DNA of 64,000 nt from Hormiphora californensis (lineage: Eukaryota; Animalia; Ctenophora). The stretch's first letter is position 1, and every line of letters begins with the position of its first letter. Below the pieces are notes generated by a model. It did no database searches, had not been told where the DNA came from, and was given only the letters and a program-made list of their open reading frames with translations. Below are positions 1-55,271 of the stretch, piece by piece. A program made the translations under genes and the position numbers. The stretch is from NCBI GenBank assembly GCA_020137815.1, contig CM035352.1, positions 2,232,001 through 2,296,000 on the forward strand, in the 5' to 3' direction.

Positions 1-3000
1 CTGACTTCTTAAAATACACCTTGATAACACCCTTAGAGAGACCCTGCATCTTCTCCTGGCTCCGTGTGATGTGTCTCTGGAGCAGGGTGAACCAGTGGAC
101 TCTGCTGACCTTGGAAGGGAAACTGAATATCACTCTGTGTAGGAGTTCATCGTCAACCGCAAAACCAATCCAAGTTGCCAGGAAGGCATTCTCAGGTCTC
201 TCAATGTGTTTGAATCCCGTACTATCTTTATACTCGCTGATACACATTTGTTTTAGTTTGACAACCCTCACAATTCTCATACTCCTGCCACGGACCTTGC
301 TGAAGATGAGCAACTGATCGAAAAGAAGGAGTTGGTATGTGTGGACCTCTGTTTCCCATCTCACTTTCACCTTTCCAATACTGTTCACATAATAGTCGGA
401 AGCATGGGTTGCTTTGGCAGCGTCCGGCCGTGGTGGTTTCACCCCTGTCAGAATGTTTACATGTTCTTCCTTCTTCAGGGCGTTCAAAATGTCTGGAGTT
501 AGTTCTGAGGCGTCATATTGATGGCCGCCTAACTCGAATTTCTCACTTGTAGTCGAGGTAGATGAGGTGGATGAGCGGTGATGATTGTTATTATTATTGG
601 ATCCACCGATCAGATCTGCAGATGTCCTGGATCGGTTAAAACTCTTCTTGATTTCCTTTCGTTTCCACCGTTTTCCCGTATCAGGTTCCTCGTGAAGAAG
701 TTTGATAAAGGTCGAGAATTCTCCTCCTGCAATATCTCCAAGCATTCCTTCAATCCGCCGGTATTCGTCAACCTGCAGTGTGCAATTAGTAAACCAAGTT
801 GGCTTCGTGTAGGGGTGACTGCGTCACCAATAAACCAAGCTACTCTCGGGATTCTCAAACCAGTAAGTAAACACAAACTCTAAATGATTTGCACCACCTA
901 GAATAACTGCATACCTCTCTCCGTCGGATAAGATCAGTGTAACTGTCAGGTAGGTTTTTTCCCCCCCCTTTTCTTGCTGCAAAAACCAAAATCGGGTTAA
1001 AATTAAATTGCTTGAGGGATTTTTCTAGAAACGCCTCAAAGAATTCTTTGTACCGTCGTAATCTTTCAATCTGAATGAAGGAGAAAATGGGAAAGTGAGA
1101 GGATTAAGAAAAAAATAAAAAGGAGAAGAGAGAGAAGAGAGAGAGGGGGAAGAAGGGGAAGGGGGGGCCCGAGGGGGGGGGAAGAGGGGAGGGGCCCCCC
1201 TTTTTTTTTGTTTTTTTTTTTTTCCCCCTTTTTTCCCTGTTTTTTTTTTTTTTTGCCCCCCCAGAAGACCTACAAAAAATTTTTTAATTCGGGGGTTCGT
1301 TATTTTTTCAACGATTGAGACAATTTTAAAATTTAAAATATTTTTCTCAAGGGTTGCAAAGGTTTTGAATAGACAGCACGCTAGGTTGGAATCGTAAGAG
1401 AGACCTGCGGGGAAACACGGGGGAAAAAAACCCCGGGGGAAGTCCGGGTTAAATGGCAATTGTTGGGTACCAAGCATAAAAATAAATGGGGGGGGGGCGG
1501 ACTCTAATAAAAGGGTCTCTTTGCCTACAAACCCAAAGAGGGTTTTAGGTCTAAACCAGTTTTATATTAGTCCCCCCGATTTAAGTGGTATCCAAAAAGG
1601 GGGGGAAAAAATGGACAAAGGGTCCCACAAATGGATCAAAAATTTTATTTTATTTGGAAAAAAATTTGCCATAAATTGCAAAAAAACGGGGGGCCAAAAA
1701 AGGCGGTCCACTGTGTTTTGTAAGTTTTAATCTTTAAAACCCCCACTAACTTTGAAATGAATTCCAAAGGATATTTATTTTTTGAAAGGGGAATAGCGGC
1801 AAATCTAAAACGTTATTTTTTTGTTATCAATAAATTTGTTGATTGTTATTGAAAACCTTTTTTATTGCCCTAAAATAGCACTGGATGGGGATGATACGGC
1901 AGTTTTCAAACAAACAACCGATTCTCTAAATTTGTATGGAATTTCCTTTCTCCTTTCTTCCTCTTCTCTCCTCTCCTTTTCCCTTTTTCACTCACCGGCA
2001 GAAAATTTAATTTTTAAAAAGAATTTTTTGGGTCCCCCCTTTTTGGAGGGGGGGCCGGAAATTTAACCTTTTTTTTTTTTTTGAAAATGCCTGGGGGGTA
2101 ACGAAAATTTTAAATCAATGGAGTAATAAAAATCTTCTTAGTCAACTCCCCTTTCAGAAAAATGTGGGTTTATTTAAAGAAAAAAAAAAAAAAGTAAATC
2201 GGGGAAACTAGAAAAAAGTTTTAAAACATTTTATTCTAAAAATGTCGAAAATTGAAGGAAATTAACCCACGGGCCTTCCCTTTTTACTCTTCTACAATAC
2301 CAATTACCTTTGGGTACCCAGTCCGGGATTTTGGGTTGTTAAACTAACCCCCTAAAAAAAACGGATATTAATTAAATTGTTGTTAAATCGCCTTTTTTAA
2401 AACCCGTATTCCTATTTTCCACAAACAATTGAAGATTTTTAAAAAGGGTTTGCCCCCGCTTCCCATAAATCTTGTTGGTTTTTTTTTTTTTGGAAAACGT
2501 GCCCTATGGTTTTAAGTATAAATAAAGGGTATTAGGGGGGTAATGCAAAAAGGGCAATCCTTCGAGAAATCAATATTTTTTTTTTTTAACCCCTTTGTGG
2601 TCAAAAGAAAAAAAAGGACAAATAGTTTTTTAAAAAAACCAAAACCCCTTTTTTAAAGTTTAAAATTTTTCTTTACGCTTTTCAATTAGTGGGAAAAAAT
2701 ATTGTACATAAAGATAAAACGAGATCCGGGTACGGGTACGGGGGATAAGCAACCCAAAAGACTCATGTTGGTGCTGCCGTACCCACTTTAAAATTAAATT
2801 TTAGCCTCGCAGAGAGAGAAAAGGAGAGAAAAAAAAGAGGAAAAAAAGGAGAGAGGGAAGAGAGAGAGAAAGGGGAAAAGAAAAGAAACCCCCTTTTGGG
2901 GGGTTTTCCTTTCCCCCAAAATTTCCCCCCCCTTTTCCCCTTTTTGCTTCTTCTCCTTTCTCTCCTCTCCCTCCCCCTCTTTTTTCCCCTTTTCCTCCCT

Positions 3001-6000
3001 TGTCCCTTTCCTCGCTCTCCTCCTTTCTTCCCCTTTTTTTCCCCCCCCCCACCCCCCTTTCCCCCCTTTTTCCCCCTCCCCCTCCCCTTTTTTCCCCCTT
3101 TTCCCCCCCCCCCCCGCCCCCGGGCCCGGGGGCCCCCCCCCTTTTCCCCGCCCCCCGGGGCCCCCCCCCCCTTTTCCCCCCCGGGGGAAAAAAAGGGGGG
3201 GGGGGGCCCCCAAAACCCCCCCCCCTTTTTTTTCCCTTTTTTTCCTTAAGCTTCCCCCTTTCTTTGGGGGGGGCCCCCAAGGCAAAAATTTAAAAAGAAA
3301 TTTTCAAAAAACCCCCCAAAGGGGGGGAAAAAAACCCCTTTTAAAGGAGTTTCACTAAAGGGTGGTATTTTAAAAGGCGGTTTAAAAACCAAAAACCCCC
3401 GGGAAATAAATTTAAAATTAACCCCCCCTTTATAATTTGGAATTTTTAAAAAGGGTCAAAAGACCGCTTTAAAACCCCCGGGGGGGGGGGAAAAAAAAGA
3501 AAAAAAGGGGAAAAGAGGAAAGGGGGAAAAAAAAGGGGGAAAATGAAAATTGGAAAAAGGAAAGGGGGAAAAGGGGAAAGTTGCAGGGTTTCCCCTTTTT
3601 TCCCCTTTTTCCCCCCCCCCCCCCAAAAAATCCAAAAAAAAGGGGGGAAAATACCCTTAAAACCCGGGAATCCTTAAAACCCGGGGTTTTCCCCCCTTCT
3701 TTAAACCCCCCAAAATTCGTCCATTTTTACAACCCCAATTAAATAAAAAAGGGGTAGAAAAGGCCTTTTACTAGGACCCCCGGTTTCCACGCCCTTCAAA
3801 AAAACCCAAAAAAAATTTTTTTCCCCACCCCCTTTTTTTTTTTTGGGGTTTTTCACCCCTTGGGGCCCTTTCTTGCCGCCCCTTTCCCTTCCCTCTTTTT
3901 CCCCCCTCTTCTCCCTTTTTCCCCAAAACCCTTTTTGGTTTAAAAAATTTTTTTAAATTAAAATTTTCTGGAGTTTTAACGTTCTCAATTAAAAATTTTT
4001 TTAAAAATTTTTTTTAAAAGAAAAAGGTCCAAAATAAAATGTAAGCTTTTAAATTTTTAAGTGAAAAAAAGAGGGTTTTTTTATTTAAAATTCCCCCTTT
4101 TTTGCCCCATATTTTGTAAAAAATTAAACCCCCTTTTTTTAAAATAATTTTTCCCCCCCTTTTTCCCTTTTAAAATTTTCCCCCCCTTTTTTTAAAATTA
4201 AAAAAAAATTTATCTAAAAGGGGAAAAAGGGGTACCCCCACCCCAAGTTTTTTCAAAGTAAGGAAACGTTCTAAGATAAAAGGATACCAAAAGAAAAAAA
4301 ATGGCCGGAAAAGGGTTTAAATATAAAAAATGGGAATTTGGGAATAAAAGAAAAGAAAAGGGGGAAAGGGGGGGGGAAAGAAAGAGGGGAAAAGGGGGAA
4401 AAAAATGGGGGTTAAAAAAAGGGGTAGAAAAGGAAAAAAAAAGGGGAAAAAAAGGGGAAAACCGGGGGAAAAAACCCCCCCCCAAAAATCCAAATTAAAA
4501 AAAATTAAAATTCTTAAAAAAAAAACGGGAAAATTTTAAAAAGGGGGCCCCCCCAAAAAAAAAAAAAAAAGGGGGGGGCAAAAAAAAAAAAACCTGCCTT
4601 TTTGGGGGAAATGCTTTTAAAAATTTTAAAGGGGTTTTTTAAAGTTTAACTCTTTTTTTTTTCTTTTTTTGGTTTTCACTATCACTATCTCGGCATGTTT
4701 ATGAGCAATACTTCTCTCACCTTCATGTACTTATAGACACTCACATGCGGAAACAGCTGCTAGAGCGAGAGATCAATCAAAAAAGAGAAAAGTTACTGCT
4801 TAGATCCATCTCTCCTTAGTCCAACGAGATATTTGTCACACTTTTTAGTAAAATGATGACAAGAAAGTGTACAATAATACATACATGCACAGGTGCTCAA
4901 AAAGCGTGTGGGGAAGGAAATTAAGTTACCCTGGCAACTTCAGAGTCCCATACTCTAACCACAGCCAGAAATAGCGTTATACACGCGGCAAAGAATGTAT
5001 TCATACTTCATACCCCATTGTATTAATACTTCATACCCCAATTCATGACTATCTATGTCAAGGGGTTGGAAGAAAGCTTTGGAGTTTTGGATAGTTGACA
5101 TAGTCAGCACATAGTTAAAAGAAGATGCGGTTAGAATGATCTCACCAAATAACCAATTGGTTATCATTGTACGACAACCGATTAACCGGAATGCAACATA
5201 TTTTCACCATGCAGCGACAACTAACTAACCGTAGTGCGGATTCGATGTTGATTGAAAAATATCCGTAGAGATCCCAAAACTCAGCGTTTTCCAAAAATAC
5301 ATCTCCTGAAAAAAAGAGGGATTATACCCGTTGTAGAGATGAGAGGTCCCCCTTTCTCTTTCTCTCTCCTGGGATGTTCTCTCACAGACTGTCGCAACCT
5401 CAGTAAGAGAAGGTGCACTGTTTTGACTCACCAACTTTTGAAGTTTCTTCACTCCAGTCGGTTAATCGTTTATCGAACTATAGCGGGAGAGAGAGAGAGG
5501 AATCAGATCAGACTATATAGAATTAGGAATTCAAGTTACTGCAGTCAACGTATCGCAACAAAGTTGTTGAGTAAAAGGGTGGTTGCACAAAAAAAAACAT
5601 TAAATGAACAAATATAAAAGTGTGAGTGAGACACGCACAAGACCATGGTTTGAAATGTGTTTCTGTTTTACAGGGGAAGCGAATCATTAATCAAATTATA
5701 TTTTACAGTGTTCAGGTTCTCCCATTTGTGAGCCCCTCTCTCTCGTAATCTCGATATCGTTATTTTGTGCTTTCCCTCCGTCTCACAACCCTCTCTTCCA
5801 TGACACCCTATCGCCCTTTCTCACTCTCACAATCTCTCTTATATTTCCCTCCCCTTCTTCTATTCCTCTGTATAATATCTCTCCCTCTCCAGTCTCCAGC
5901 CAGACAGGAAATAGAAATTGGTTGGTGATTCATGCGGGGGCGGGTCTGCGAGGCATCACCTTTCTACTGCTGCAGCAGTTGAGAGTGACATGAGAGATAC

Positions 6001-15604: not shown

Positions 15605-26559
<10,955 letters not shown>

Positions 26560-28081: not shown

Positions 28082-28998
28082 CAAGTAAATGAGGGCTGTC
28101 TTGCAGCGTCAGTCCCCATTTTTATTTTTTCGACAGTCGAATATGTCGAATGTTTGATTTGTGAGGACTGAGGTCCCCAAATTTGAGAGCATGCACCCTT
28201 CTAATAAATCTTCACATCTCACCCATTGAGTCGCCTGACACTGTGTCCACGCTCCGAAAGAATGAACATTTCAACTCACACAATCGCTTAATAAATAAAT
28301 CAAGCCTGGTTAAATTACATCCCTGTCTGGCGGTGCTGACCATAATTACACTTCCCATGAGACAGTCCTCACTGTGTAACCCGCCCACGTGAGATGCTGC
28401 CCACTTGCCACTTGGTTAGGTAATAGGTGCAAACCCATCACTAAGTAGGGGTTTCAAGATGCAAGAGAACTGCAAGTTGAAACATTCAACCTGCATGTTG
28501 TAGCGGCCTGCCAAGAAAAACTGCCGCGTTGATTGTGTGCCAAGAAATACAGTGCAGTCGGTGTGGACGTTTTCCCCAACACTTCTAAAAATATAAGTTG
28601 GAGTTTCCGATTGTTCAGTGCTCAGTGTATGTACTGTTTCTAATTGCTATCAGAAGTCTGTAATATAGTGCACTGTGTTGTAAAGTGTTGACTCTACCAA
28701 TGCTTCTTAGGTTCTAACCCTCTTTTACATTTGTTTCCCGGGTGGGGTGCGGGAAACAGGGTCGATCAATGCCTCTCAGTTGCCAATTTCATGATTAACT
28801 TGTGACTTTTTAGCAGGTAAATATAATAGTAATACCAGTTTGCATGTTCATGTCCTCATCGGAAGCGAGGGCCGAGGGCGTCTACCTGCTACTTTGGAAA
28901 ATTTGTTGTGAACATAAATTTTTTGAAAATGATAGACGATGATTCGGAAAAAAATAATCAGATAATCTACAAAATCATTCGGAAGCTATGAAATCATT

Positions 28999-29004
28999 TT
29001 TATT
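28999..29004 (-). terminator. Polyadenylation signal of the GGP-repeat gene
   Basis: AATAAA on the minus strand about 27 nt after the TAG at 29031. Confidence 0.65.
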
Positions 29005-29030
29005 TTTCCGAGTTCAACTCAGAGTCCACT

Positions 29031-32000
29031 CTATTGTCCATAGCCGTTTCCCCATCCATTGCCCCACCCAGAGCCATATCCAGCAGCAGAGCCACCTCCA
29101 GCACCACCGGCACCTCCGGCACCACCGCTGAGTCCTCCGCCAAAACCGGCTCCGAAACCGTTTCCAGCTCCAGCACCGGCTCCGAAACCGTTTCCTGCTC
29201 CAGCACCGGCTCCGAATCCGTTTCCGGCTCCAGCACCGGCTCCGAATCCGTTTCCGGCTCCAGCTCCAGCACCAAGGGGAGCTCCGCCCATATTCACAGA
29301 GATGTTAGCTCCAAAACCGGGATTGGCACCACCAGCATTAGGGAATGCAGGGGCACCTCCGGCATTAGGGAAGTTAGGGGCACCTCCACCATTAGGGAAG
29401 TTAGGGGCTCCTCCACCGTTGGGGAAGTTAGGGGCACCTCCGCCGTTGGGGAAGTTAGGGGCACCTCCAGCATTAGGGAAGTTAGGGGCACCTCCACCGT
29501 TGGGGAAGTTAGGGGCACCTCCGCCGTTGGGGAAGTTAGGGGCACCTCCAGCATTGGGGAAGTTAGGGGCACCTCCGCCGTTGGGGAAGTTAGGGGCACC
29601 TCCGGCAGGGGCGGCACGAGGAGTGTTGGTCCTAATGTTAATGTTAAGACCACCAGCGGGGGCAGCTCCAGGGAAAGTGATAGCGGTGTTAGGGACCATT
29701 CGGCGTCCACCGTTCAGTCGGACAACACTGTATCCGGGCCTGCTCTTGGATGGCCTAATGTTGGACTGGGGAACGGTAACAAGAGTTCCAGAAATGGCAA
29801 CTGTAACCGCAGGGATAGGTGCTGCGGGGATCGAGCTCAGGGGAGATCTGATCGGGGACCGCATGAACACGGGAGATCTAATGGGAGAGCCAGGAAGGGA
29901 GTGCAGTGGTGAGTAGATGCAAAGTGGAGTTCCACTCTCACCTGGGCCACCTGGTCCTCCAGGACCTCCTGGGCCACCAGGTCCACCGGGTCCGCCAGGA
30001 CCTCCGGGGCCACCAGGTCCTCCGGGTCCACATGGAAGGAAGGCGTGAGGAGGCTGCAGACAAGCTGGGCACTTATCCGCGGGGGTATTGGGCTGAGGGC
30101 CACTGACAGTAACCTCAATGATAATAACAGTGGGACAGATTGGTCTTCGCTCTCCCTTGATCTTCACAGAGAATCCAGTCTTGGGGGCCTTCCTTGGTCG
30201 GAAGTTCCTTCCGGGAACAGTGAAAGAGGTTCCGGCAACGGTGATTGTGTAGAACTTCTGAGGGTAGATAGGGGTACCATTGACCACGAATAGTGGCCTA
30301 CTGTGTGGCGCTCCAGAAGGCTCGTTCATCATCGTTTTAGGGAGGACCACAATAGGTCGCTTGTCCCCAACGAGGGGATCGTAGTGAGGCTTCACTGACT
30401 TGTCTGGGTTGAAGAGGACGTAGAGAGGGAAGTGTCGAACACCCTTAGGTAGCAACACTCCTTTGAGGGAGTCAGGAAGAGACTTGGGTTTCGTTCCTGG
30501 GAAGATAAGTTTGTAAGGGCAATCATCTTCATCAGAACTGGAGTCAGAAGAAGTGTAGTCTGGATCAGAATCACCGGGAAGGCCACCTGGACCTCCTGGA
30601 CCTCCAGGACCACCTGGACCACCTGGACCTCCAGGGCCACCATTACGAGGATCATCATCGGGATCGGGGCCACCGGGACCTCCTGGGCCTCCAGGTCCAC
30701 CGGGACCGCCAGGTCCTCCAGGTCCACCGGGACCTCCACGGTTTTTGGGACTGTAGGGACAGTCTTCGGGACTATGAGGACCTCGGCCTCCAGGTCCACC
30801 TGGACCTCCTGGACCACCTGGACCTCCAGGACCACCAGGACCACCTTGTCGAGGATCGTCATTGGGATCTCTTGGTCCACCGGGTCCACCTGGGCCTCCG
30901 GGTCCACCTGGACCTCCAGGTCCACCACGTCGAGGATCGTCGTTGGGATCTTTTGGGCCTCCTGGACCTCCTGGCCCACCAGGACCTCCTGGACCACCTC
31001 GTCGAGGATCGTCGTTGGGATCTCTTGGTCCACCTGGGCCTCCGGGTCCACCGGGACCTCCTGGACCTCCAGGTCCACCTCGTCGAGGATCGTCGTTGGG
31101 ATCTCTTGGTCCACCTGGGCCTCCGGGTCCACCAGGACCTCCTGGACCACCGGGACCTCCTGGGCCACCACATCTCCTAGGGCAACGAGGACCTCCGGGA
31201 CCTCCAGGACCACCTGGTCCGCCTGGGCCTCCAGGACCACCAGGACCACCTCGTCGAGGATCATCGTTGGGATCTCTTGGTCCACCTGGGCCTCCGGGTC
31301 CACCAGGACCTCCTGGACCACCAGGACCACCTCGTCGAGGATCGTCGTTGGGATCCCTTGGTCCACCTGGGCCTCCGGGTCCACCAGGGACCTCCTGGAC
31401 CTCCAGGTACCACCTCGTCGAGGATCAGTCGTTAGGGATCTTTTGGTCCACCAGGACTGCCACACAACGGGCAGTCATGTTTGGGATCTTTGGGACCTCC
31501 AGGACCACCAGGTCCACCGGGACCTCCTGGACCTCCAGGACCACCCCTTCGAGGATCATCGTTGGGATCTCTTGGTCCACCTGGGCCTCCGGGTCCACCA
31601 GGACCTCCTGGACCACCAGGACCACCTCTTCGAGGATCATCGTTGGGATCTCTTGGTCCACCTGGGCCTCCAGGTCCGCCGGGACCACCTGGACCTCCGG
31701 GACCACCTCTTCGAGGATCATCCCTGGGATCTTTAGGACCTCCAGGTCCGCCGGGACCTCCGGGGCCACCGGGACCACCCCTTCGAGGATCATCTCTGGG
31801 ATCTTTTGGTCCGTCTGGGCCTCCAGGTCCGCCGGGACCACCTGGACCTCCAGGTCCACCGGGACCACCGGGTCCACCACAGAATGGACATCTGTGTTTT
31901 TTAGGTCCTCCAGGACCTCCTGGACCTCCTGGACCTCCTGGTCCTCCGGGACCTCCTGGTCCAGCAGGCTTTTTAGGCGATTCTGGCTTCTTTGGAGCTG

Positions 32001-35000
32001 CTGGTTTTATAGGGGATTCTGGTTTCTTTGGAGTAGCAGGAGCACGGTTTCTTGGGCTGTAAGGACAATACTCTGGACTGTGTGGAGTAGGTCCTCCAGG
32101 TCCCCCGGGACCTCCTGGGCCACCTGGACCTCCTGGTCCTCCGGGACCTCCTGGTCCAGCTGGCTTTTTGGGAGATTCAGGTTTCTTTGGAGCTGCTGGT
32201 TTTTTTGGAGATTCTGGCTTTTTTGCTGGAGCTTGTTTCCTTGGGCTGTAAGGACAGTCCTCTGGGCTGTGAGGAGCAAAAGGTCCTCCAGGTCCACCGG
32301 GACCTCCAGGACCTCCTGGCCCACCAGGACCTCCAGGACCACCTGGACCACCACGTCGAGGATCATCCTTAGGCTTTTTGGGGCCACCTGGACCTCCAGG
32401 TCCGCCTGGGCCTCCAGGTCCTCCGGGGCCTCCAGGTCCGCCCCGTCGAGGATCGTCTCTGGGATCTTTAGGACCACCTTTTCGAGGATCATCTCGGGGA
32501 TCTTTAGGACCTCCGGGTCCTCCTGGGCCTCCGGGTCCGCCTGGGCCTCCTGGTCCACCTGGGCCTCCAGGACCTCCACGGTTCTTAGGGCTGTAAGGAC
32601 AATCTTCGGGGCTGTGGGGCGCACGAGGGCCTCCAGGTCCCCCGGGACCACCTGGACCTCCTGGGCCACCGGGACCTCCAGGACCACCTCTTCGGGGATC
32701 ATCCCTGGGATCTTTAGGACCACCGCGTCGAGGATCGTCTCGGGGATCTTTAGGACCTCCAGGTCCGCCAGGACCACCTGGACCTCCTGGGCCACCGGGA
32801 CCTCCAGGACCACCTCTTCGGGGATCATCCCTGGGATCTTTAGGACCACCGCGTCGAGGATCGTCTCGGGGATCTTTAGGACCTCCAGGTCCGCCGGGGC
32901 CACCGGGACCTCCTGGGCCACCGGGACCTCCAGGACCACCTCTTCGGGGATCATCCCTGGGATCTTTAGGACCACCGCGTCGAGGATCGTCTCGGGGATC
33001 TTTAGGACCTCCAGGTCCGCCGGGGCCTCCAGGACCTCCGGGTCCACCTGGGCCTCCAGGACCACCACGGTTCTTAGGGCTGTAAGGGCAATCTTCGGGG
33101 CTGTGTGGGCCACGAGGACCACCTGGTCCTCCAGGTCCTCCGGGACCACCTGGACCTCCAGGTCCGCCGCGTCGAGGATCGTCTCTTGGATCTTTAGGAC
33201 CTCCAGGTCCGCCGGGACCACCTGGTCCACCGGGACCTCCAGGACCACCTCTTCGGGGATCATCCCTGGGATCTTTAGGACCACCTCTTCGAGGATCATC
33301 TCGGGGATCTTTAGGACCGCCAGGTCCGCCTGGGCCTCCAGGTCCACCTGGGCCTCCTGGTCCACCTGGACCTCCACGGTTCTTAGGGCTGTAAGGGCAA
33401 TCTTCAGGGCTGTGTGGGCCACGAGGACCGCCTGGTCCTCCTGGTCCTCCAGGTCCTCCGGGACCACCTGGACCTCCAGGTCCGCCGCGTCGAGGATCGT
33501 CTCTTGGATCTTTAGGACCTCCAGGTCCGCCGGGACCACCTGGTCCACCGGGACCTCCAGGACCACCTCTTCGGGGATCATCCCTGGGATCTTTAGGACC
33601 ACCTCTTCGAGGATCATCTCGGGGATCTTTAGGACCGCCAGGTCCGCCTGGGCCTCCAGGTCCACCTGGGCCTCCAGGACCTCCAGGTCCGCCGCGTCGA
33701 GGATCATCTCTGGGATCTTTAGGACCACCTGGACCTCCGGGTCCACCTGGGCCACCGGGACCTCCGGGACCACCTGGACCGCCACGGTTCTTTGGGCTGT
33801 AAGGACAATCTTCGGGGCTATGGAGGCCACCAGGTCCACCTGGGCCTCCAGGACCTCCGGGTCCACCTGGGCCTCCAGGACCTCCGGGTCCACCAGGACC
33901 TCCGGGACTGCTACCAGGACTCGACCAAGTTGGGGTACTAGAACCACTATCCGGGGCCTCAAATTCAATAGTAATTGGATTCAATGGGCTATTGGGACAA
34001 AGTGGATGATGGGTAAGCTTGCCGTTGACCGATATAATAAATCCATTTGGGTCAGGAGAACCCCCTGGGCCACCAGGTCCTCCGGGACCTCCTGGACCTC
34101 CGGGTCCACCACCATTTGGAGATTTCGGTTTCTTGGGGCTTTCGGGTTTCTTTGGGCCACCAGGTCCACCTGGACCTCCAGGTCCACCTGGACCTCCGGG
34201 TCCACCTGGGCCTCCAGGACCACCATGTCGTGGATCGACACACAGAGGGCAGTAGGGTCCGCCAGGGGCCTCCAGGTCCTCCAGGACCTCCTGGGCCACC
34301 GGGACCTCCTGGGCCACCATCTTTAGGAGATTCGGGTTTCTTTGGACCTCCTGGGCCTCCGGGTCCACCTGGGCCTCCAGGACCTCCGGGTCCACCAGGA
34401 CCACCATGTCGTGGATCGATACACAGAGGGCAGTAGGGTCCGCCGGGGCCTCCAGGTCCACCAGGACCTCCTGGGCCACCGGGACCTCCTGGGCCACCAT
34501 CTTTAGGAGATTCGGGTTTCTTTGGGCCACCAGGTCCACCTGGGCCTCCAGGACCTCCGGGTCCACCTGGGCCTCCAGGACCACCATGTCGTGGATCGAT
34601 ACACAGAGGACAGTATGGTCCGCCGGGGCCTCCTGGGCCACCGGGACCTCCTGGGCCTCCGGGACCTCCTGGACCACCATCTTTAGGAGATTCGGGTTTC
34701 TTTGGGCCACCAGGTCCACCTGGGCCTCCAGGACCTCCGGGTCCACCTGGGCCTCCAGGACCACCATGTCGTGGATCGACACACAGAGGGCAGTATGGTC
34801 CGCCGGGGCCTCCTGGGCCACCGGGACCTCCTGGGCCACCGGGACCTCCTGGACCACCATCTTTAGGAGATTCGGGTTTCTTTGGGCCACCAGGTCCACC
34901 TGGGCCTCCAGGACCTCCGGGTCCACCTGGGCCTCCAGGACCACCATGTCGTGGATCGACACACAGAGGGCAGTAGGGTCCGCCGGGGCCTCCAGGTCCT

Positions 35001-36426
35001 CCGGGACCTCCTGGTCCACCGGGACCTCCTGGGCCGCCATCTTTAGGAGATTCGGGTTTCTTTGGACCTCCTGGGCCTTCGGGACCACCAGGACCCCCAG
35101 GTCCACCTGGGCCTCCAGGACCACCTGGACCACCATATCTAGGATCAAGTAAAAGAGGACAGAAAATGCCGCCAGGACCCCCGGGTCCACCAGGACCTCC
35201 AGGTCCACCTGGACCTCCTGGGCCACCAGGACCCCCTGGACCACCAGGACCTCCTGGGCTACCTGGTCTGGTAGGATCACGACATTCAGGATAGTATGGA
35301 CAACCTCCTGGGCCTCCATCGCCTCCTGGGCCACCATCACCTCCCGGGCCACCATCACCTCCCGGGCCACCATCGCCTCCTGGGCCTCCATCGCCTCCAT
35401 CGCCTCCTGGGCCACCATCGCCTCCTGGGCCTCCATCGCCTCCATCGCCTCCGGGACCCCCTGGTCCACCGGGACCGCCCTCCTTGCTTGGCAGAGCTGG
35501 TCCGAAGCAGTATGGACATACAAGTCCAGTGGGGCTTGATGGCCTACTGTTCATTATTCCGCAGATAGGACAAAAGATAAGGTTGTTGGGGAGTGGTTCA
35601 GGTTGGTTGGCAGGGGAAGATGGACAATCCCTACAGTGGATTCCAGGGCTCCCGGGTGCACCGGGACAACCGTTATCAGCAACAGCTGGTCGAACGTTAG
35701 TTCCAAAGTATGTCCTTCCGAACAGCTTGACCGTTACTGTTCCGGGTGTCGGGTTGGGGCTGATATCCACTCCCATCACGTTCTGGTCACGACCGATCTC
35801 TGGGATAAAAACAATAAACAGAGTGGTTGGGTTGAGTGTCTGAGGCTGGCCCTGAGGACTGGCGAAGGGGTTCACCATGTTAAGAATGGGAGAGCCACCA
35901 GCAGGAGCCCGAGCGTTGGGGTTCACCATGTTGAGGCTGGGTCGGGCGTTAACATTAAGGTTAACATTTGGTGCGCCCATGCCGATAACAGGTCCGCCCA
36001 TAGCAGGAGCTCGAGCGTTGGGATTTGCCATGTTGAGGTTTGGTCGGGCGTTAACATTAAGGTTAACATTCGGTGCGCCCATGCCCACAGCAGGTCCGCC
36101 CATAGCAGGTCCACCCATGCCCATAGCAGGTCCACCCATGCCCATAGCAGGTCCACCCATGCCCATAGCAGGTCCACCCATGCCCATAGCAGGTCCACCC
36201 ATGCCCATTAGCAGGCTCCGCCACGAGCGTTGATACTGATGTTGGCACCTAGACCACCGCCTGCAGCTGCTCCTCGAGAAGCGTTAGCCGCGGCAGCCCC
36301 AAAGTTAGCTGCATTGCCCATAGCACCCGATCGGGCGCCCATTGCCGCGTTAGACATGGCTCCGTTTCCGGAGCCGAATGCTGCATTTGCAGCTCCCCCG
36401 TTGAAGTTCCCGTAATTATATGCCAT
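29031..36426 (-). CDS. Giant (Gly-Gly-Pro)n / CxxC modular structural protein, ~2,460 aa, intronless CDS
   Basis: Four ORF segments join into one frame of 7389 nt after removing 7 single-base insertions (36216, 36209, 34264, 31434, 31427, 31409, 31386), each visible as a deviation from neighbouring repeat units. Upstream acceptor at 36456-36457, ATG 36426, stop 29031, AATAAA downstream. Spacer variants are synonymous on this strand. Confidence 0.85.
34223..35123 (-). repeat. 180-bp higher-order coding repeat, five units
   Basis: Anchor ccatgtcgtggatcga at 34223, 34404, 34584, 34764, 34944; unit = YCPLC(V/I)DPRH(GGP)7 KKPESPKD(GGP)7, 60 aa. Confidence 0.9.
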
Positions 36427-37198
36427 TATCAATCATTAGGCAAACACACGAGACACTGGACAAAAGAAAATGAAATTCAGATAACAAACAATGGACAATA
36501 TATACAGATTAAGCGAGGTCACTCTAGCTGCATATATTGTGTGTGTGACATCAAGGTGTCAGCCAATCAAGGGCCCTCCTTCTAGCGGCTAGACACAGGC
36601 AAACACCGCTACCAGATGAAAACTACATGTGAAACCATACCCCCTCTTATCATCACCCCGCTGAAAATTCCTCTCAAATTCACTAAATTTCAGCCTTTTT
36701 ACGCAGTTTAGAACTAAATTTGTTGTGAGAAAGTCACGTCCTTGATAAGGAATGTCAGGCTAATAATAGAAATGGCGAATAAGCCAAGTAGATAAGCGTT
36801 TTGACTTCTCGGATTGTGCCAGGGTAAGGTGGGCATGAGAGAGGGGGCGAGATGGATCCGGCCTTATGGCCGACAATATTCATTATAAATCATTCTATCT
36901 AGGAAGATATTATCATAACCACAAAGTGTCGTTATGATAATGAATAATCGACTGGTTATGATACTGGTTATGATAATTATTGGTATACCGATTTTGATAG
37001 AAACTAAGTCGTTCTACCTCAAAACGTCAAAATTATTAATTGTTTATAACTCAGCAAATACAAACAATAAAATATGTATCCTTAAAATCATCTCGATCCT
37101 CTACCGTTATAATCTTCAATGCTATTATTTTGTTCAATTATCATGAATGACTTGAATGCCATCGCGAGACTGTAACGATTATTCAATGATAATTCCAC

Positions 37199-37913
37199 TC
37201 ATCCCGTCTCTTCCAGTTCCCTTGTCAGTTTCTCGATAATGCATCGAAGTGAGGTATTCGTGCTTCTCAGCCACTCATTCTCTGATTCACGCTCTTTTTC
37301 CCACTGAAGTTTCCCAGAAAGCGTTGTTATGCGAATCATCAGCCTCTCGTGCTCCTGGAGAGAGGGAGAGAGCACGACCGAGTTAAATTTTAATTAAATA
37401 CCAGATTTGACAAACATGAATGTGGTTTAAGCTGCTGAAGATCATTGGCTTGCCCAGGAGGTACTTATTAAAAACTAAATGCATGGACTGAAGTCTTGCC
37501 TACGTTTTGTAATCGGTCGAGCTTCTGGTCCGCCAGTTCAATTCTCCTTTTAGTATTGCTACCCTTCTGCTTTTCTCGCTTCGTCATGGCCTTCATGTCC
37601 TCTAGATCCTGACTCAGGAATTAAGGTACAGATACAAAGTGAAAAAAGCAAAGACTGACTTTTCAATAACCTAGCGTACTTCTTCCTCATGTACCTTTTT
37701 GAGTCCAATGTTAGCCTTCCTGCATTCTGTGGGAGTTTCCACCGTCGTGGAGGGAGATAAATTCCCCCCATAACTGGGCGATAAATTACCCCCATAACTG
37801 GGTGATACAGCGTCACATGGAGAAGATTCCGAGCTGTCGGACAAGCTATCGTCGTCGGTACAAGAAGCAGAGTTAAGGCGTTCCCACTTACCCTCCCGTA
37901 GGACAAGTTTCAT
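37199..37913 (-). CDS. Small Ser-rich / C-terminal coiled-coil protein, 3 exons, ~164 aa
   Basis: Exons 37913-37680, 37608-37504, 37354-37199, GT-AG, phase 0; Leu heptads in RLQNEHERLMIRITTL. Could instead be the 3' part of the gene at 40358. Confidence 0.6.
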
Positions 37914-41582: not shown

Positions 41583-42757
41583 ATGAATGTTACAGAATAC
41601 TCGGATGTGTACTCGGATTGGGAAAGTGTTACTTTCTCCATTGCCATCACCATTGGCACAATATTGGGTGAGTTAAATTGGTAACCATGGTAACCATGGT
41701 GAGTTACGGGTTAAAACAATTCGGATCGCTGCCAGGTTGATCTTTTTTCATTCCTAAACCTCCAATTACCCAAAATACATTGTTTCAGGTGTTGTTGGCA
41801 ATATCTTCCTCCTTTTTGTATCCAGGAGATATGATGTATTTGCCATTGACTACGTGACAGTCCATCTCATCCAGCAGCTTGCAATAGCGGATCTGATCTT
41901 CATTTTCATTTTCCTGATCCCCATCCTTGTGACTCACATCACCCGGAAGTGGGTTTTCGGACGGACAATCTGCTTTGTTTCCGGTATGATGGTTTCAATC
42001 CCTGCGTGTGCTAACATCAACTTTGTCCTCGCGGTATCCCTCCACAGATACGGGAGGTGCCGGTATCCCCTCTCCATTGGATGGCTGGATCGCAACAGAG
42101 TCCCCTTCGTCTCCTCCGCTCTCTGGCTCTACTCCAGCATATTCACTCTCTACGTCCTCCTCTCCCCCGAAACTGTGGAGTTCTTCCCTGGGTTGGCCGC
42201 TTGCCAGTTCAGTTTTGATATCTCCTACTTTAACTTTCTAGCCATCACGGCAACCACCCTGGTTCCCTTCGTAGTGATCACAACGATAAACATCGCTCTG
42301 TGGGTTCACGTTAGGGAGATACTCCGGAAGTCACACTTCCAAGTCCTACCAGGCCCTTCTCATAACCTCCTCCCTGACAGCATTTTTCATCCTGTGCTGG
42401 GCTCCCACCGTCGTTCCGTTTTATGTTCTCCTGCGGTGGTGGGAGAGGCAGGAGTGCCGAGACTGCCTTGAGAAGCTGCGTTATGTGTACTTTATAGGTG
42501 TGTGTGGGAATCCAATCCTGTACACCGCGGTCAGTGGACATTTCCGGCTCTTTGTACGGAACTTTATCAAGCTCTTATTGTTTGGAGATCACACGGTCAT
42601 CGAGCAACCACCACGGGATGTCCCACCACCACCATCCTCTAACAGGAGATTTGCCCGGCGTGCCAGTAGCAAGTGGCTCTCACTGGAGCACATTGACACC
42701 GTACCAAAAACTCCAATACGGGCTTACACGCCACGAGTTAGGGCATGTAGCACTTAG
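41583..42757 (+). CDS. Class A (rhodopsin-like) GPCR, 2 exons, with apparent indel errors
   Basis: Exons 41583-41667 and 41789-42757; N-glycosylation site NVT, TM1 GN, TM2 LAIADL, WVFG..C, TM3 SLHRY, TM6 CWAP, TM7 GNPILY. Frame change near 42338, plus probable mutually compensating insertions at ~42415-42462. Confidence 0.85.
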
Positions 42758-44969: not shown

Positions 44970-46105
44970 GTAATACAACAAGATTTGCCAATAGTTAGGA
45001 ATTACTACTATTATATACCGCAAGATTGATCGTAATGAAAATTGCAATTTACGAGTGCAGCAGTTCCACTTTATTAGAGCGTTTACCTGCCTGCTCTTTT
45101 ATACTTAGGATCGTAATTTACCTAACGCATCATGAAAATTGGCATTCTTTATGCTGAATGTAAATTTAGAAGAGCATTTAAATTATGTGCTATGGAGGAT
45201 AAATGACAAGAATAATCTTATTTTTTTCGGCTTTCAAAGTACAATATCTAAATGCTCAAGAGCACTTTTTAAATAAAAGTTGTTTTCCTGAAATTTTTTT
45301 TGATACATTGTATCTTTGCGGAAATGAATGTAAATCGAAAGCAATTATGCGTTTCAAGATAGGCTACTTCTGAGCTGTGTTTGGTTCGTGTTGTTTACCT
45401 ATTTACCCGAGATATACATCATCATAGGCACATTTTTATGTTGCATTTTGTGACTTAAGTCACAAAGTTAATATAATGTGAGTCCACTTGTGTTCAGGGT
45501 TGCATTATTTAACTATTCATTGTTCATAATGCACACACTGTGACACATGTCATTGTTACACATACAACAACAGAAGAAAAGAATTGAAGTACTTTGGGTA
45601 GTTAGAGGTATACAACATAACGAGAGGATATTATATAATTATCCACCGGCCATTTGGGTAGTGGGTTCTTAAATGCCTATAATGCATTCTTGATTCTCTA
45701 ATGCTAAATTCATAATATAATACTGTTTGGTTTCCACTCCCTTATTTTCTTAAGTTAAAATTAGAGCTTGAACTTGTTCGGAAATCATTCCTTTTTTTCA
45801 TTAACTATTTGTCAATGAAGCTTCACTTTCCTCACTCTGTTTGAGATAATGTGTGTAATTATTGTCTGAGGCGTGTAATTAGCGACTGAGTAATTATTGT
45901 TATTCCTATTTTTTAAGAACAACGCTCGAAATCGTGGCGTTTAATCGTTGCTATAATTGACGTTTTAGACGAATCAGAAATTACTTCTGATTCTTTGCCT
46001 TTTACATTGAAGATGCATTGACTTAACATATTTCCTTATAAAAGGCAGTGTTGAAAATTAATATGAGTATATCTATGGCAATTATTCCCCTTATATCCCT
46101 AGAAC

Positions 46106-47092
46106 ATGATGCTGAATGTTACTGGGATTAACGATTCTGAGATCATCTACGCCCGCTACAACGCTGTCCCCTGGGAGGGTTACATTTGGTTCACACTGCT
46201 AACAACGGGGAACGTCTGTGGAATTATCGGCAATGCCCTTGTTATATACTGCTCAATGGAGTACGGCTCCTTCAAGATGGATGGTGCAACTATCGCCTTC
46301 GTCCGACAAATAGCCATAAGTGATATTCTGTTTATCCTGATTTACTCCGTCCCCATTGCCCTGACACACCTTTTTCGTCGGTGGGTGTTGGGCGGGTTGG
46401 TCTGCTTGATTCTCGGCCATGGGGTGACAGTGCCCGTTATGGCGAGTATAAACTTCATCCTGGCCGTATCCCTCCACCGGTATCTCCGGTGCAAATATCC
46501 AATCTCAGTTCGGGAAATTACCGCCACGAAGGCAACTCAGATCTCCATAGCCATTTGGTTGTTCTCCCTCGCCCTGGCGATTTATAACATAGCGAGTGGT
46601 AAAAGTGTTGAGTTCAATGGGAAGCTGGCCGCCTGTACATTCCATTTTGGACATTCCACCTACAACGTCGTGGTTATGATTCTATTGACACTGTTCCCCT
46701 TTATCGCCATAACTGTCATCAACATTATCCTATGGGTCTACGTCACAAACCTACTCAAACAACACTCTGGGAGCCCCACAGGACGGTCCAATGTGGCGCT
46801 ACTGACCACAGCCGCCGTTACAGGTCTCTTTTGGATATCATGGAGTGCCACCGTTGTGAGGTTTCATTACTCAGCCATAGTAGACGAACATGATGTGTCC
46901 GTGGGTATGGAGAAAGCAAGGTATTTGTACATGTTGGGAGCCTATGGGAATCCTCTTATTTACACCATGGTCAACCATGGGTTTAGGGACTTTATCAGGA
47001 ACTTGTTGAAGAGGATTTACACCAAATATATGCCGTTTGTTAAGGTCAGGAAGAATACAGTGAATATTGGGCAACAAAATAGTATTGCATAG
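46106..47092 (+). CDS. Class A (rhodopsin-like) GPCR, intronless, 328 aa
   Basis: Seven hydrophobic segments; NVT/NDS glycosylation sites, GN, IAISDIL, WVLG..C, SLHRY, GNPLIY; clear paralog of 41583-42757. Confidence 0.93.
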   Translation: MMLNVTGINDSEIIYARYNAVPWEGYIWFTLLTTGNVCGIIGNALVIYCSMEYGSFKMDGATIAFVRQIAISDILFILIYSVPIALTHLFRRWVLGGLVCLILGHGVTVPVMASINFILAVSLHRYLRCKYPISVREITATKATQISIAIWLFSLALAIYNIASGKSVEFNGKLAACTFHFGHSTYNVVVMILLTLFPFIAITVINIILWVYVTNLLKQHSGSPTGRSNVALLTTAAVTGLFWISWSATVVRFHYSAIVDEHDVSVGMEKARYLYMLGAYGNPLIYTMVNHGFRDFIRNLLKRIYTKYMPFVKVRKNTVNIGQQNSIA

Positions 47093-52285: not shown

Positions 52286-52921
52286 TTTTTCTCAAAGTTC
52301 TTTCCACTTGTTCAAACTGAGTCGCATACACCAATTAACTTGGGTCAGGAGTTCAAAATTAGACCGAATTTATCAACTTTATATGTTTCTCTCTTCTCTC
52401 TCTCTTCTCTCTCTCTCCCTCTCTCCCTTGCCTGTGTGTCAGGGCGTGCATTTGTATGTTGTGAGTGGCCCTCAATTAACTGTCTCTCACTATTCCTGCC
52501 TTCTAGCGCACCCCCTCTGTCTCTTGTAGTGTCCGCAAGATTTAATGCCTGATTAGTTGCGCCCGGTAACTGCCGTACAATTCCGTCGCGGGCCAACTCA
52601 ACTACATATCGACAACCACTTATCACCATCACCACCGCGGAGAAGTTCCTGCAGCAGATTTGATCCAGAGTGATAATTGTGAAACTTCCTCATTTGTCAC
52701 CTCTTCTACCGGTTCTAATTATAAACTCCAGCTCCCTCTCTGTGTCTGTGTGTGGTTCTCCTATCTACTGCTTCTGCACCGGTAAACCACCCCACCACAA
52801 CTAACTGTGTGAAACTCAGTTCGCCAACTCGACATCTTGTAATTCTGTGTCATTTTTGTGTTCTAACAAAAGGTGAATTTCACTGGTACCAGCTAGTTAG
52901 CTATTGTCGCCCACACACGTC

Positions 52922-55271
52922 ATGCCCCTGGCATCTTTTAGCGAGACTGAGGAGAATATAGCAGAGGTAAGAAAGAAATGTGCCAATTTTGTTGCCAAGT
53001 CTTTCAACTTGTTGCCTGGGGCTAGTGGATCTGGTGGGGTGGTTAGCAGGGGCAGTTCATCCAACAATAGGCCTCCACCACCCAAACTCCGTACCATCCG
53101 ATTCAAATTGGATGGAAATATGAAGGGAGATAAACGTATCAGGTCGAAGAAGCCCGTCCATTTTGCTTCAAGCTCCGGCTCCTCAAACTCCCTCAATGCT
53201 CCCCGGCCCCCGCCTCGACAGAGACGGCGATCCTCAACTCAATTGCAGTGTGTTAAAATGGTTGAAGCGTGTTCTCCCATATCAAATGCAGATGGCAAAC
53301 ATATCACAGAAACTAAACCTTCCTTACCAGATACTACTCCAGATAGATCTGTAAAGAAGCCTCCTCAACCCTCAACCACCACTACTCAACGACCGGCTAT
53401 CAAGAAGCCGATTCCTCACAAAACTGCTAGGACAGTTAGCTCTGTGCCAGCCAAAGCGGCTCCTTTGGTGAGACCAAAAACACTAGATACATCGGGGAGG
53501 AATAACACACCCAGCAGTCGAAATGTGGCAGCTTGCAACTGCAGCTACTCTTCCCTCCCAACTCCTGACAGATTCATGTATTCAGCCAATAGTACACCCC
53601 TTGGGAGTATGGACTCCCTGAACCCTTTCTTTGCTGAAGACATCAGGAAATTTGCCCCCTTGGCTGTTTCTGCATTGATTACCAGTTCGGAATTCGTCAA
53701 GAAAACTGAAGCACTTGGTATCTCAGGTTCACTTTCATCCATCAACACAGATATGCTCATACGACCAGCCAGTTCAAACAATTCGCTACAACGGAATCGC
53801 CCTCAGCATGGTTTTTATAATGCATACAACACCAGACGAGGAAGTGCCCCGGTTGTGAGTACCCGGCCTGTTGCTCAACTCGTCAGCAGCAAGTTGACAT
53901 CCTACAAAGAAGATTCATCCTCTGACTACACCTCAGATACGGGTTCCTCTTCAACAGAGTTTGGCGATGAAGAAGATGACACTCAATACAGTATGATGTA
54001 CTCCAGAGACATGTCCCATCCCCTACCGCTCGTTGATGCGACCATTAACCTCCCCTTTGGAAAGAAGATCCATGATTCGTGGGAGAACTCTACCCCACTC
54101 CACGACAACTCTGTTGTGAGGGTCTGTAATGAGGAGTCCGTTGTCATAGAGATAGAACCAAATGATGAGGATGATCAACGAGGAGAGGACACAAAAACTC
54201 CCGATTCGAATGATCCTTACTTTGTGAGCATGGCGGACATAAAGCGTTCACGATCTATTGCAAAACTAACTGAGATGGAGCCCCTCAACAATCAAATGAA
54301 CTGTCTTTGTTGTACGTGCAGGGAGCCGAAAACTATGGTTCCCTTGTATTGTATTATGGGTATAGCGATTGTAATCACTTTCATTGTTATGATCGACATG
54401 TTACCAAAAGAGTAGCTTCAAGGGGAACAGGGAATTAGATACCGGCCCTGCTGGTAGGGTAAGTAATCGTCACCGGACATTTTGGTGTAGCTCCACAATT
54501 ATCATTTAGTTCCTTGATCTAAAACTTATCATCAAACAATTCATTCGCTTGTTTCCTATCTCTTGTTTCCTTCAGGCTGTTGCAGATATCAGGGAGAGAC
54601 GGGAACAGCAGGATCTTATGTTGAGCATTACGATGGGGAAAATAAAACAGGCGGACAAAAGAGTTAACGACTTAGAAGAGGTATTTGACTACACTATGTA
54701 TCTGACAGATAATCGTTAACACTAACTGATAACCCTAAGCTAAGGCCTAACCAGACCCTGCAAGCTCTTAAACTAATCATTTAAACCATTGTCATTTAAA
54801 CCATTGTCATTTAATCATTTAAACCACTAACATACACTGACTGTACAATGTACATCACGCAACCTCGCTCACGTAGCCGCACCGGGCCTTCGGCCCGGTG
54901 CGAAGAGGAGGGTCTTATATGAGACAATTAAACCAATGGTGTTTGTACTGTCCACTAAATGTGATTATTTTTATCAGGAGCAGGAACAACTGCAAAAGAA
55001 ACTAACGAGCTTAGAAGCGAAAATGATGGTAGGATTAGAAATTAGCTTCGCAATTCTTCGTGTGTTATTATTGCCAAGCTAGACTGTGTTTCGGGGTACA
55101 AATTAAGGGAGGGTTTATTAGAACATAAAGTGATATTATACATGATAGTTAGGACCATAGATTCACTAAACACCCGTTTCCCTCCCACAGGCACTACGAT
55201 CCGATCAAGAGGGAATGAACAAGTTAAACAAGACTCTAAAAGCAACTATAACTGGACTTGTTTCTACCTAA
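52922..55271 (+). CDS. Single-pass membrane protein: long disordered N-terminus, Cys cluster, TM helix, C-terminal coiled coil
   Basis: Large exon from ATG 52922; CLCCTC then VPLYCIMGIAIVITFIVMI. Removing one A at ~54406-54409 reads through to donor 54458 and phase-0 exons 54576-54680, 54978-55028, 55191-55271 (QADKRVNDLEEEQEQLQKKLTSLEAKM). Confidence 0.72.

Follow-up and report, generated by a model that had tools for sequence, protein, structure and literature searches.

We analyzed a 64,000-nucleotide stretch of the Hormiphora californensis genome (contig CM035352.1, positions 2,232,001 to 2,296,000; hereafter the window, with positions counted from its first letter) and found that 29031..36426, on the minus strand, is a real gene of a family without an earlier description. 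It encodes a Gly/Pro-rich block protein of 2,462 amino acids (~225 kDa; 34.7% Gly, 24.0% Pro, 0.5% Gln, 40 Cys, net charge +58). Judged by its relatives, it is one member of a multi-gene family in which a conserved C-terminal domain goes with interchangeable repeats. A preliminary description, made from the letters of the window, had presented the protein as a candidate new system; indeed, no described family was found, but unnamed relatives share the C-terminal domain, so that it is not an orphan. By the design of its sequence the protein is a new family within the elastomeric block-protein kind, spidroin-like in design but not a spidroin.

Six-frame translation recovered every listed block in the proposed order on the minus strand, from an ATG at 36426 to a TAG at 29031, spread over three frames. 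Once seven single bases were omitted (near 36216, 36209, 34265, 31434, 31427, 31408, and 31387), a single frame of 2,462 residues with a terminal stop only was obtained, in agreement with the ~2,460 residues proposed earlier. For comparison we used four DNA runs, which represent two samples at most. In run X5, from the other sample, a single base was absent at 36214, 36210, and 34265, and run X2 lacked 23 bases at 36194, corresponding to one 21-base unit plus 2. The four clustered bases (31387..31434) had no indel row in the other DNA runs. In X2 and X5, contigs connect 31645 with 31436, the shorter side measuring 51-52 letters and the letters between being flagged 'not known', and this join, if taken literally, reads a clean repeat unit and bypasses the four bases, which is indirect evidence that they are probably assembly errors. 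Because other DNA runs lack three of the bases directly and bypass four indirectly, all seven are most likely assembly errors, as had been supposed. Elsewhere in the window, at ~1000-4500, short homopolymer runs have the look of a poor long-read consensus, which fits indel errors in the gene.

The differences between DNA samples also follow the minus frame. Among the 40 of 78 differences to the DNA runs that were listed, 33 were classified as coding, 27 of them synonymous and 6 not; 6 non-coding differences and 1 beside the insertions were left out of this count. A second comparison, with RNA runs and the DNA run X18, which carries a second species label, gave 21 synonymous and 7 other changes among 28 coding differences (40 of 461 listed); in both comparisons, differences that fall within repeats lack independence and may stem from mis-mapped units. 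All 30 bins are covered by X18, with 93 differences in one piece of 1,248 bases, and the coding indels of X18 (from 12 of 80 indel differences listed) measure 6, 3, 6, 3, 3, 9, and an adjacent 1+2 bases, all keeping the frame. Half of the records holding window DNA (10 of 20) are recorded as RNA. RNA contigs from three studies cover parts of the coding frame, are colinear with the DNA, and are 97-100% identical to it in unique stretches (13 differing letters in 1,005 for the contig at 29574-30569); none spans the gene, and they show neither strand nor expression level. The expected transcript is therefore represented in its coding part by contigs that cannot show its strand. RNA runs X7, X8, and X9 have no cover in five bins (36308-37892) where X18 DNA does, so that the ATG region lacks RNA confirmation, and the depth of X9 contigs drops from ~200-250 close to the stop to 3-5 within the core; because gaps and contig depth do not allow the parts of a gene to be ranked, neither was counted as evidence.

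It is very improbable, and largely refuted, that the frame is an artefact, a pseudogene, or a plus-strand (Gly-Pro-Pro)n collagen misread by strand. The seven frameshifts in the window sequence, four of them without a direct indel row, and the blindness of contigs to strand speak for such a reading. However, the plus-strand GPP frame contains 29 stops and no open stretch beyond 426 amino acids, so the gene does not represent the reverse strand of a collagen. It is the minus frame that homologues match and that both selection and synonymous bias fit.

We searched for relatives with the segment 30030-30524, which gave 11 matches among 1.84 billion protein representatives (best E 4e-37). On inspection, nine of these are credible as true relatives. 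The other two, P0011 and P0012, lie in a repetitive, unrelated context and were rejected as chance matches; their cluster mates and near-duplicates were excluded from profile building. A profile search returned 7 matches, 5 of them new and short, and a further word-based search added P0024, whose cluster contains P0026 (2,868 amino acids). The relatives come from marine transcripts and contigs, and none of the proteins has a name; the segment thus led only to unnamed relatives and to no characterised family. In JGI contigs, 8 loci (L001-L008) were identified among 166 candidate stretches. L001 and L002 (73 and 70% identity) have GGP runs (2-5 and 3-8 triplets, respectively) with other spacers, while the family domain is preceded by GPYGPSGPA repeats in L003/L008, GPGGX repeats in L005/L006, and YPAAPS repeats in L004. 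L007 appears to have introns, because it carries stop-containing inserts relative to L005 at two places. P0026 shares the end domain of the window protein and has 22 matches to a 55-residue beta module, separated by Gly-rich linkers; the module profile was built before P0026 joined the set, and reversed decoys scored at most 3.5 bits. As a side observation, P0026 has the look of a bead-on-a-string paralogue in which near-identical beta modules alternate with Gly-rich linkers and IDIDI spacers. A short IDIDI-type spacer also recurs across repeat types in L003, L004, L005, and L008, with NININ/NISVN-like counterparts in the window protein, and might be a beta-zipper cross-link. Loose contig ends at 30628, 31546, and 34856 (same species label) read, by eye, GGP-coding DNA followed by other spacer-like coding sequence, hinting at more GGP/GPY paralogues in the genome.

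In a tree of 15 domain cores, the window protein, L001, and L002 group together (92/93, not starred), apart from the members with other repeat types. Over 117 codons of these three genes, the proportion of differences at synonymous sites (pS) is 0.73-0.87 and at nonsynonymous sites (pN) 0.13-0.16, with synonymous sites near saturation; the family domain is under strong purifying selection.

Known families and structures did not account for the domain. We found no Pfam family (E up to 1) in the head, the N-terminal segment, the C-terminal 516 residues, or the family domain, and 0 matches by sequence search of PDB or in Rfam. The ESM Atlas gave no usable match for the C-terminal 308 residues, a result that shows neither absence nor novelty. 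A single-sequence search of proteins of 290-2,000 amino acids returned 0 of 266 candidates and is insensitive, as it missed the true relative P0006 (310 amino acids); the word-based protein searches covered lengths up to 2,000 amino acids, so that longer annotated members could be missed. Viral contigs gave 0 of 153 candidates, and the one hit among 52 prokaryote candidates, a 19-residue match, was discarded as chance. We found no description of the family in the open literature, where most subscription papers fall outside the scope and uncharacterised gene models of more than 2,000 residues are possible. Passages of PMC11184263 and bioRxiv 10.1101/2020.06.27.175059 have no bearing on it. Together with the empty Pfam, PDB, and Atlas searches, this bears out the earlier statement that no described family is recognisable. 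AlphaFold2, run on 9 sequences, modelled the module confidently as beta strands (predicted local distance difference test, pLDDT, 78-91 per block over model residues 81-140 of the family domain) and the first half of the domain poorly. The 55-residue module is thus predicted to fold as a small beta-barrel, and the family end domain is predicted to be all-beta. Foldseek found no match to the module model at E 0.001. The best structural match of the module, a weak one, had Z 4.4 and a root-mean-square deviation of 2.5 over 55 residues, to SH3/Sm/Tudor-like barrels. A two-copy complex prediction of the family domain was uninformative (score 0.00), as was a single-sequence AlphaFold2 prediction for 381 repeat residues (mean pLDDT 42.9, predicted template modelling score 0.13).

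All features of the gene lie on the minus strand. A head rich in Gly, Ala, and Asn (36217..36426) has no hydrophobic signal-like stretch and is followed by an (MGGPAMG)n block (35900..36215; a 21-base unit x5.6 and a 102-base unit x2.1, with two of the extra bases at its upper edge) and by a non-repetitive segment with three CxxC motifs at residues 264, 285, and 303 (35480..35896). The repeat core of ~1,630 residues (316-1945; 30588..35479) is 41.9% Gly and 28.8% Pro, as expected from the elastomer-like composition noted before. It is made of (GGP)n runs and four main spacer types, including [13 protein letters not shown](V/I)DPRH, HSPE(D/Y)CPYSP, and DP(R/N)DDPRR, with a 54-residue non-GGP insert (33898..34065) that has no Pfam match. 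The protein contains 337 GGP triplets, with 47 runs of at least two; run lengths are 3 (1 run), 5 (3), 6 (14), 7 (22), 8 (5), and 9 (2), and most spacers between them are 8-10 residues long. Beyond the core, an acidic Ser-rich motif that is kept in most relatives (30522..30551) immediately precedes the conserved family domain (30090..30524; ~145 residues), which consists of an FPLxVxF-PD-S-KP half and the first copy of the beta module (30126..30293). The last GGP run (29943..30023) lies between the two modules, the second of which follows a SPIRSP-rich linker (29682..29840; profile E 3e-16 in the local set). A ([10 protein letters not shown])n block (29349..29604; 27-base unit x9.4) and ([10 protein letters not shown])x4 with a Gly/aromatic tail to the stop (29031..29264) complete the protein. 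Of the three globular segments recognised initially, the two C-terminal ones match the family profile. The N-terminal one has no match to the beta-module profile and a pairwise E of 0.044 to P0026, suggesting at most a degenerate module copy; a third copy was not found by the profile in the window.

We consider the chances about even that the protein is an elastic filament or meshwork inside cells, assembled via its end domain and with the Cys/His spacers as cross-links. A cytosolic location is suggested because neither of the two full-length members seen, the window protein or P0026, begins with a hydrophobic stretch; the absence of a signal peptide would retain the protein in the cytosol. 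Because a fixed end domain goes with exchangeable Gly/Pro blocks, the repeats may set material properties while the domain serves assembly. The conserved domain and modules would tie chains together or to an anchor, like spidroin end domains. Hydrated (GGP)n runs and mixed-charge spacers would act as entropic springs, with Pro and Gly preventing beta-aggregates, and indeed high Pro plus Gly has been reported to separate elastomers from amyloids (PMC5424786), a composition that the core shares, and GPGGX repeats with charged spacers are the flagelliform design (PMC6168590). Spacers with C-x2-C-x4-H and H-x4-C, each short of four ligands, could cross-link chains by shared Zn2+ or disulfides. C-x2-C-x4-H is present 6 times, against a mean of 0.01 (max 1) in shuffled sequences: five times in spacers and once, after the domain, in a full C-x2-C-x4-H-x4-C (30030..30071). 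H-x4-C is present 10 times (mean 0.38, max 3) and SP[KR] 16 times (mean 1.8, max 6), counts in which the copies of a repeat lack independence. SP/SPK sites and the acidic Ser motif may allow assembly to be tuned by phosphorylation, and paralogues with other repeats may give fibres of differing stiffness. Several points weigh against this reading. The GGP runs are tighter in length than an entropic spring requires (36 of 47 have n = 6-7), and the total of S/T-P sites barely exceeds that in shuffled sequences (50 versus a mean of 29, max 48). The structural match of the module is weak, and the module is not tied to elasticity, since P0009 and P0010 carry 9 modules each with 5-7% Gly and no elastomer-like repeats. 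In addition, most relatives are seen by their 3' ends alone, and the assessment of signal peptides used a hydropathy scan only. P0009 and P0010 also share a C-terminal region of ~130 residues with no Pfam match.

The narrow spread of run lengths, together with spacers of mostly 8-10 residues, could instead mean that (GGP)6-7 runs fold into a two-layer polyproline-II (PPII) sheet, with Pro outside and the spacers as turns, making a stiff ribbon and not a spring. Sheets of two PPII layers have been reported for (Pro-Gly-Gly)n peptides, and the Gly-rich PPII bundles of nature consist of antiparallel helices with short loops (bioRxiv 10.1101/2023.11.25.568672). However, run lengths vary in the closest relatives L001 and L002, and the paralogue repeats YPAAPS and GPYGPSGPA are not GGX. 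We regard the ribbon as unlikely.

The Cys/His and basic motifs of the protein admit a further explanation. Nucleic acids are bound by RGG and SPKK motifs, and the protein might be a scaffold of RNA or chromatin granules in germ cells or sperm. In such a granule, phase separation would be driven by the low-complexity head and tail, with RRGG, SPKK-like, and CCHC-spaced motifs and the Sm/Tudor-like barrels as binding sites for nucleic acid or methyl-Arg. In around 25 places a DP(R/N)DDPR spacer continues into GG and thereby forms RRGG, there are 9 [ST]P-x-[KR] sites besides the one exact C-x2-C-x4-H-x4-C and the net positive charge, and LSm, Tudor, and WYL barrels are among the weak structural matches. 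However, the first part of the knuckle (C-x2-C-x4-H) is kept in place in L001 and L002 while its last Cys is not, Pfam gave no zf-CCHC match despite the single exact spacing, RRGG was not seen by eye in the available parts of L001-L008 or in P0026, and Z values of at most 4.4 imply a common arrangement only. A granule scaffold therefore seems improbable to us.

The ends of the gene bear on whether the protein could be exported. A pyrimidine tract with an AG acceptor (36456..36472; 13 of 15 pyrimidines) places the first exon base at 36455, 29 bases above the ATG, and ranks top among 6 acceptors listed in 36150-36800. Because this strong acceptor is followed by in-frame stops before the ATG, it likely marks an intron in the 5' untranslated region (UTR) or a trans-splice site and not a coding upstream exon. 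The gene had been called intronless; this holds piece by piece for the colinear DNA and RNA contigs, none of which spans the gene, and has to be qualified for the likely 5'-UTR intron or trans-splice site. The putative 3' UTR (28958..29030) is probable on the weak hint of one RNA study: it contains AATAAA at 29004-28999, and an RNA contig of X9 ends at 28958. Within the first 40 residues, Kyte-Doolittle hydropathy reaches a maximum of 0.59 over 10 residues, so the N-terminus is not hydrophobic, in line with the lack of a signal peptide proposed at the outset. A secreted or extruded fibre or adhesive (tentacle, colloblast, or egg coat), released when the cell ruptures or by means of a signal exon that escaped detection, would agree with a layout that parallels flagelliform silk and Cnidoin, with 40 Cys that could make disulfides, and with an extreme 5' end that lacks an RNA contig. 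Yet in-frame stops separate the strong acceptor from the ATG, and in P0026, too, a single frame opens with a Gly/Ala-rich head that is not hydrophobic. Colloblast candidates are described as enriched for signal peptides, though just 53 of 189 have one (PMC6278862). We judge a secreted fibre to be a long shot.

By design the protein is akin to flagelliform spidroin, Cnidoin, and titin PEVK without belonging to any of these groups. Spidroins, including the flagelliform silk protein Flag, share a very long Gly/Pro core, charged spacers, non-repetitive ends, and a family that keeps an end domain while varying the repeats. GPGGX/GGX repeats with charged spacers, as defined for Flag (PMC6168590), are present here; the GGP runs are readable as GPGGP, and L005/L006 have true GPGGX. 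Unlike Flag, whose ends are described as helical (PMC6168590), the window protein has an end domain predicted to be all-beta. Spidroins have a signal peptide and are secreted from glands. In contrast, the window protein has no signal-like hydrophobic stretch, has Cys/His-rich spacers, and gave no spidroin Pfam match. Collagens have a signal peptide and uninterrupted (Gly-X-Y)n with imino-rich X and Y; in the window protein no run exceeds 9 triplets, each triplet has two Gly, and Pfam gave no collagen match. Cnidoin and the minicollagens are alike in that Cnidoin is a Gly-rich elastomer of an early-branching animal with Cys for cross-links. Cnidoin is described as having a signal peptide, a Lys-Arg propeptide, GXGQQ repeats, six-Cys minicollagen cysteine-rich domains, and a mass of ~42 kDa (PMC4321713); these features are absent from the translation of the far larger, Gln-poor window protein. 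The PEVK segment of titin is likewise giant and presumed intracellular, with small beta modules alternating with Pro-rich extensible segments, and is resembled by the [12 protein letters not shown] spacers of the window protein. Unlike titin, the protein has Gly-rich repeats and no Ig or Fn3 match, and it is unrelated by Pfam and PDB searches. Gly-rich PPII bundles (springtail antifreeze proteins, ALK, phage gp38) and synthetic (Pro-Gly-Gly)n share two Gly per triplet, short runs, and loops; 47 runs with Pro at every third position in one chain of this length set the window protein apart, and a PPII fold here is hypothetical. The ctenophore comb plate protein CTENO189, to which elastic links between cilia are credited, is also a large lineage-specific structural protein; it has 1,582 residues, a metalloprotease, and two death domains (bioRxiv 10.1101/2022.03.27.486007), which Pfam did not find here. 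Passages of the colloblast candidate study mention no such protein (PMC6278862).

The window contains other elements. A long interspersed nuclear element (LINE) retrotransposon at 19311-23503 (minus strand) looks intact, with a 406-residue first open reading frame (ORF1) that has a weak zinc knuckle and a 1,011-residue endonuclease/reverse transcriptase ORF2. Two related single-frame rhodopsin-family G protein-coupled receptors (7tm_1) lie at 46103-47092 and 41758-42471 (both plus strand), the second of which seems to lose its frame before the last helices. The LINE and the two receptors give a eukaryotic context. For the receptor at 46103-47092, Ctenophora is the most frequent phylum in the nearest Atlas cluster (score 0.98), in which 15 of 100 members have a known phylum, and clusters of other phyla score 0.97; a ctenophore host is weakly supported by this. 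An open reading frame of 504 residues at 52901-54415 (plus strand) is Ser/Pro-rich, ends in a hydrophobic C-terminal tail, and has no match in Pfam. An exact look-up of this frame and the receptor in the protein collection found neither.

More broadly, and tentatively, comb jellies may have evolved giant intracellular fibre proteins in a spidroin-like radiation of their own, in which one end domain and beta module are combined with interchangeable repeats (GGP, GPGGX, GPYGPS, YPAAPS, and bead-on-a-string) and chains are cross-linked by split Zn sites. Tentacles, colloblast tethers, or titin-free muscle would owe their recoil to such fibres, and the window member would be a (Pro-Gly-Gly)n polymer that is both long and natural, a kind known mainly as synthetic peptides. 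If the protein is an elastomer, it would represent an independent invention of a silk-type design, seemingly intracellular and with a domain absent from family libraries. The repeat-plus-spacer units may serve as templates for protein materials and offer a natural test of (Pro-Gly-Gly)n sheet folding. The domain provides a handle for listing the family in ctenophore genomes and single-cell atlases, making the recoil of tentacles, tethers, or muscles testable.

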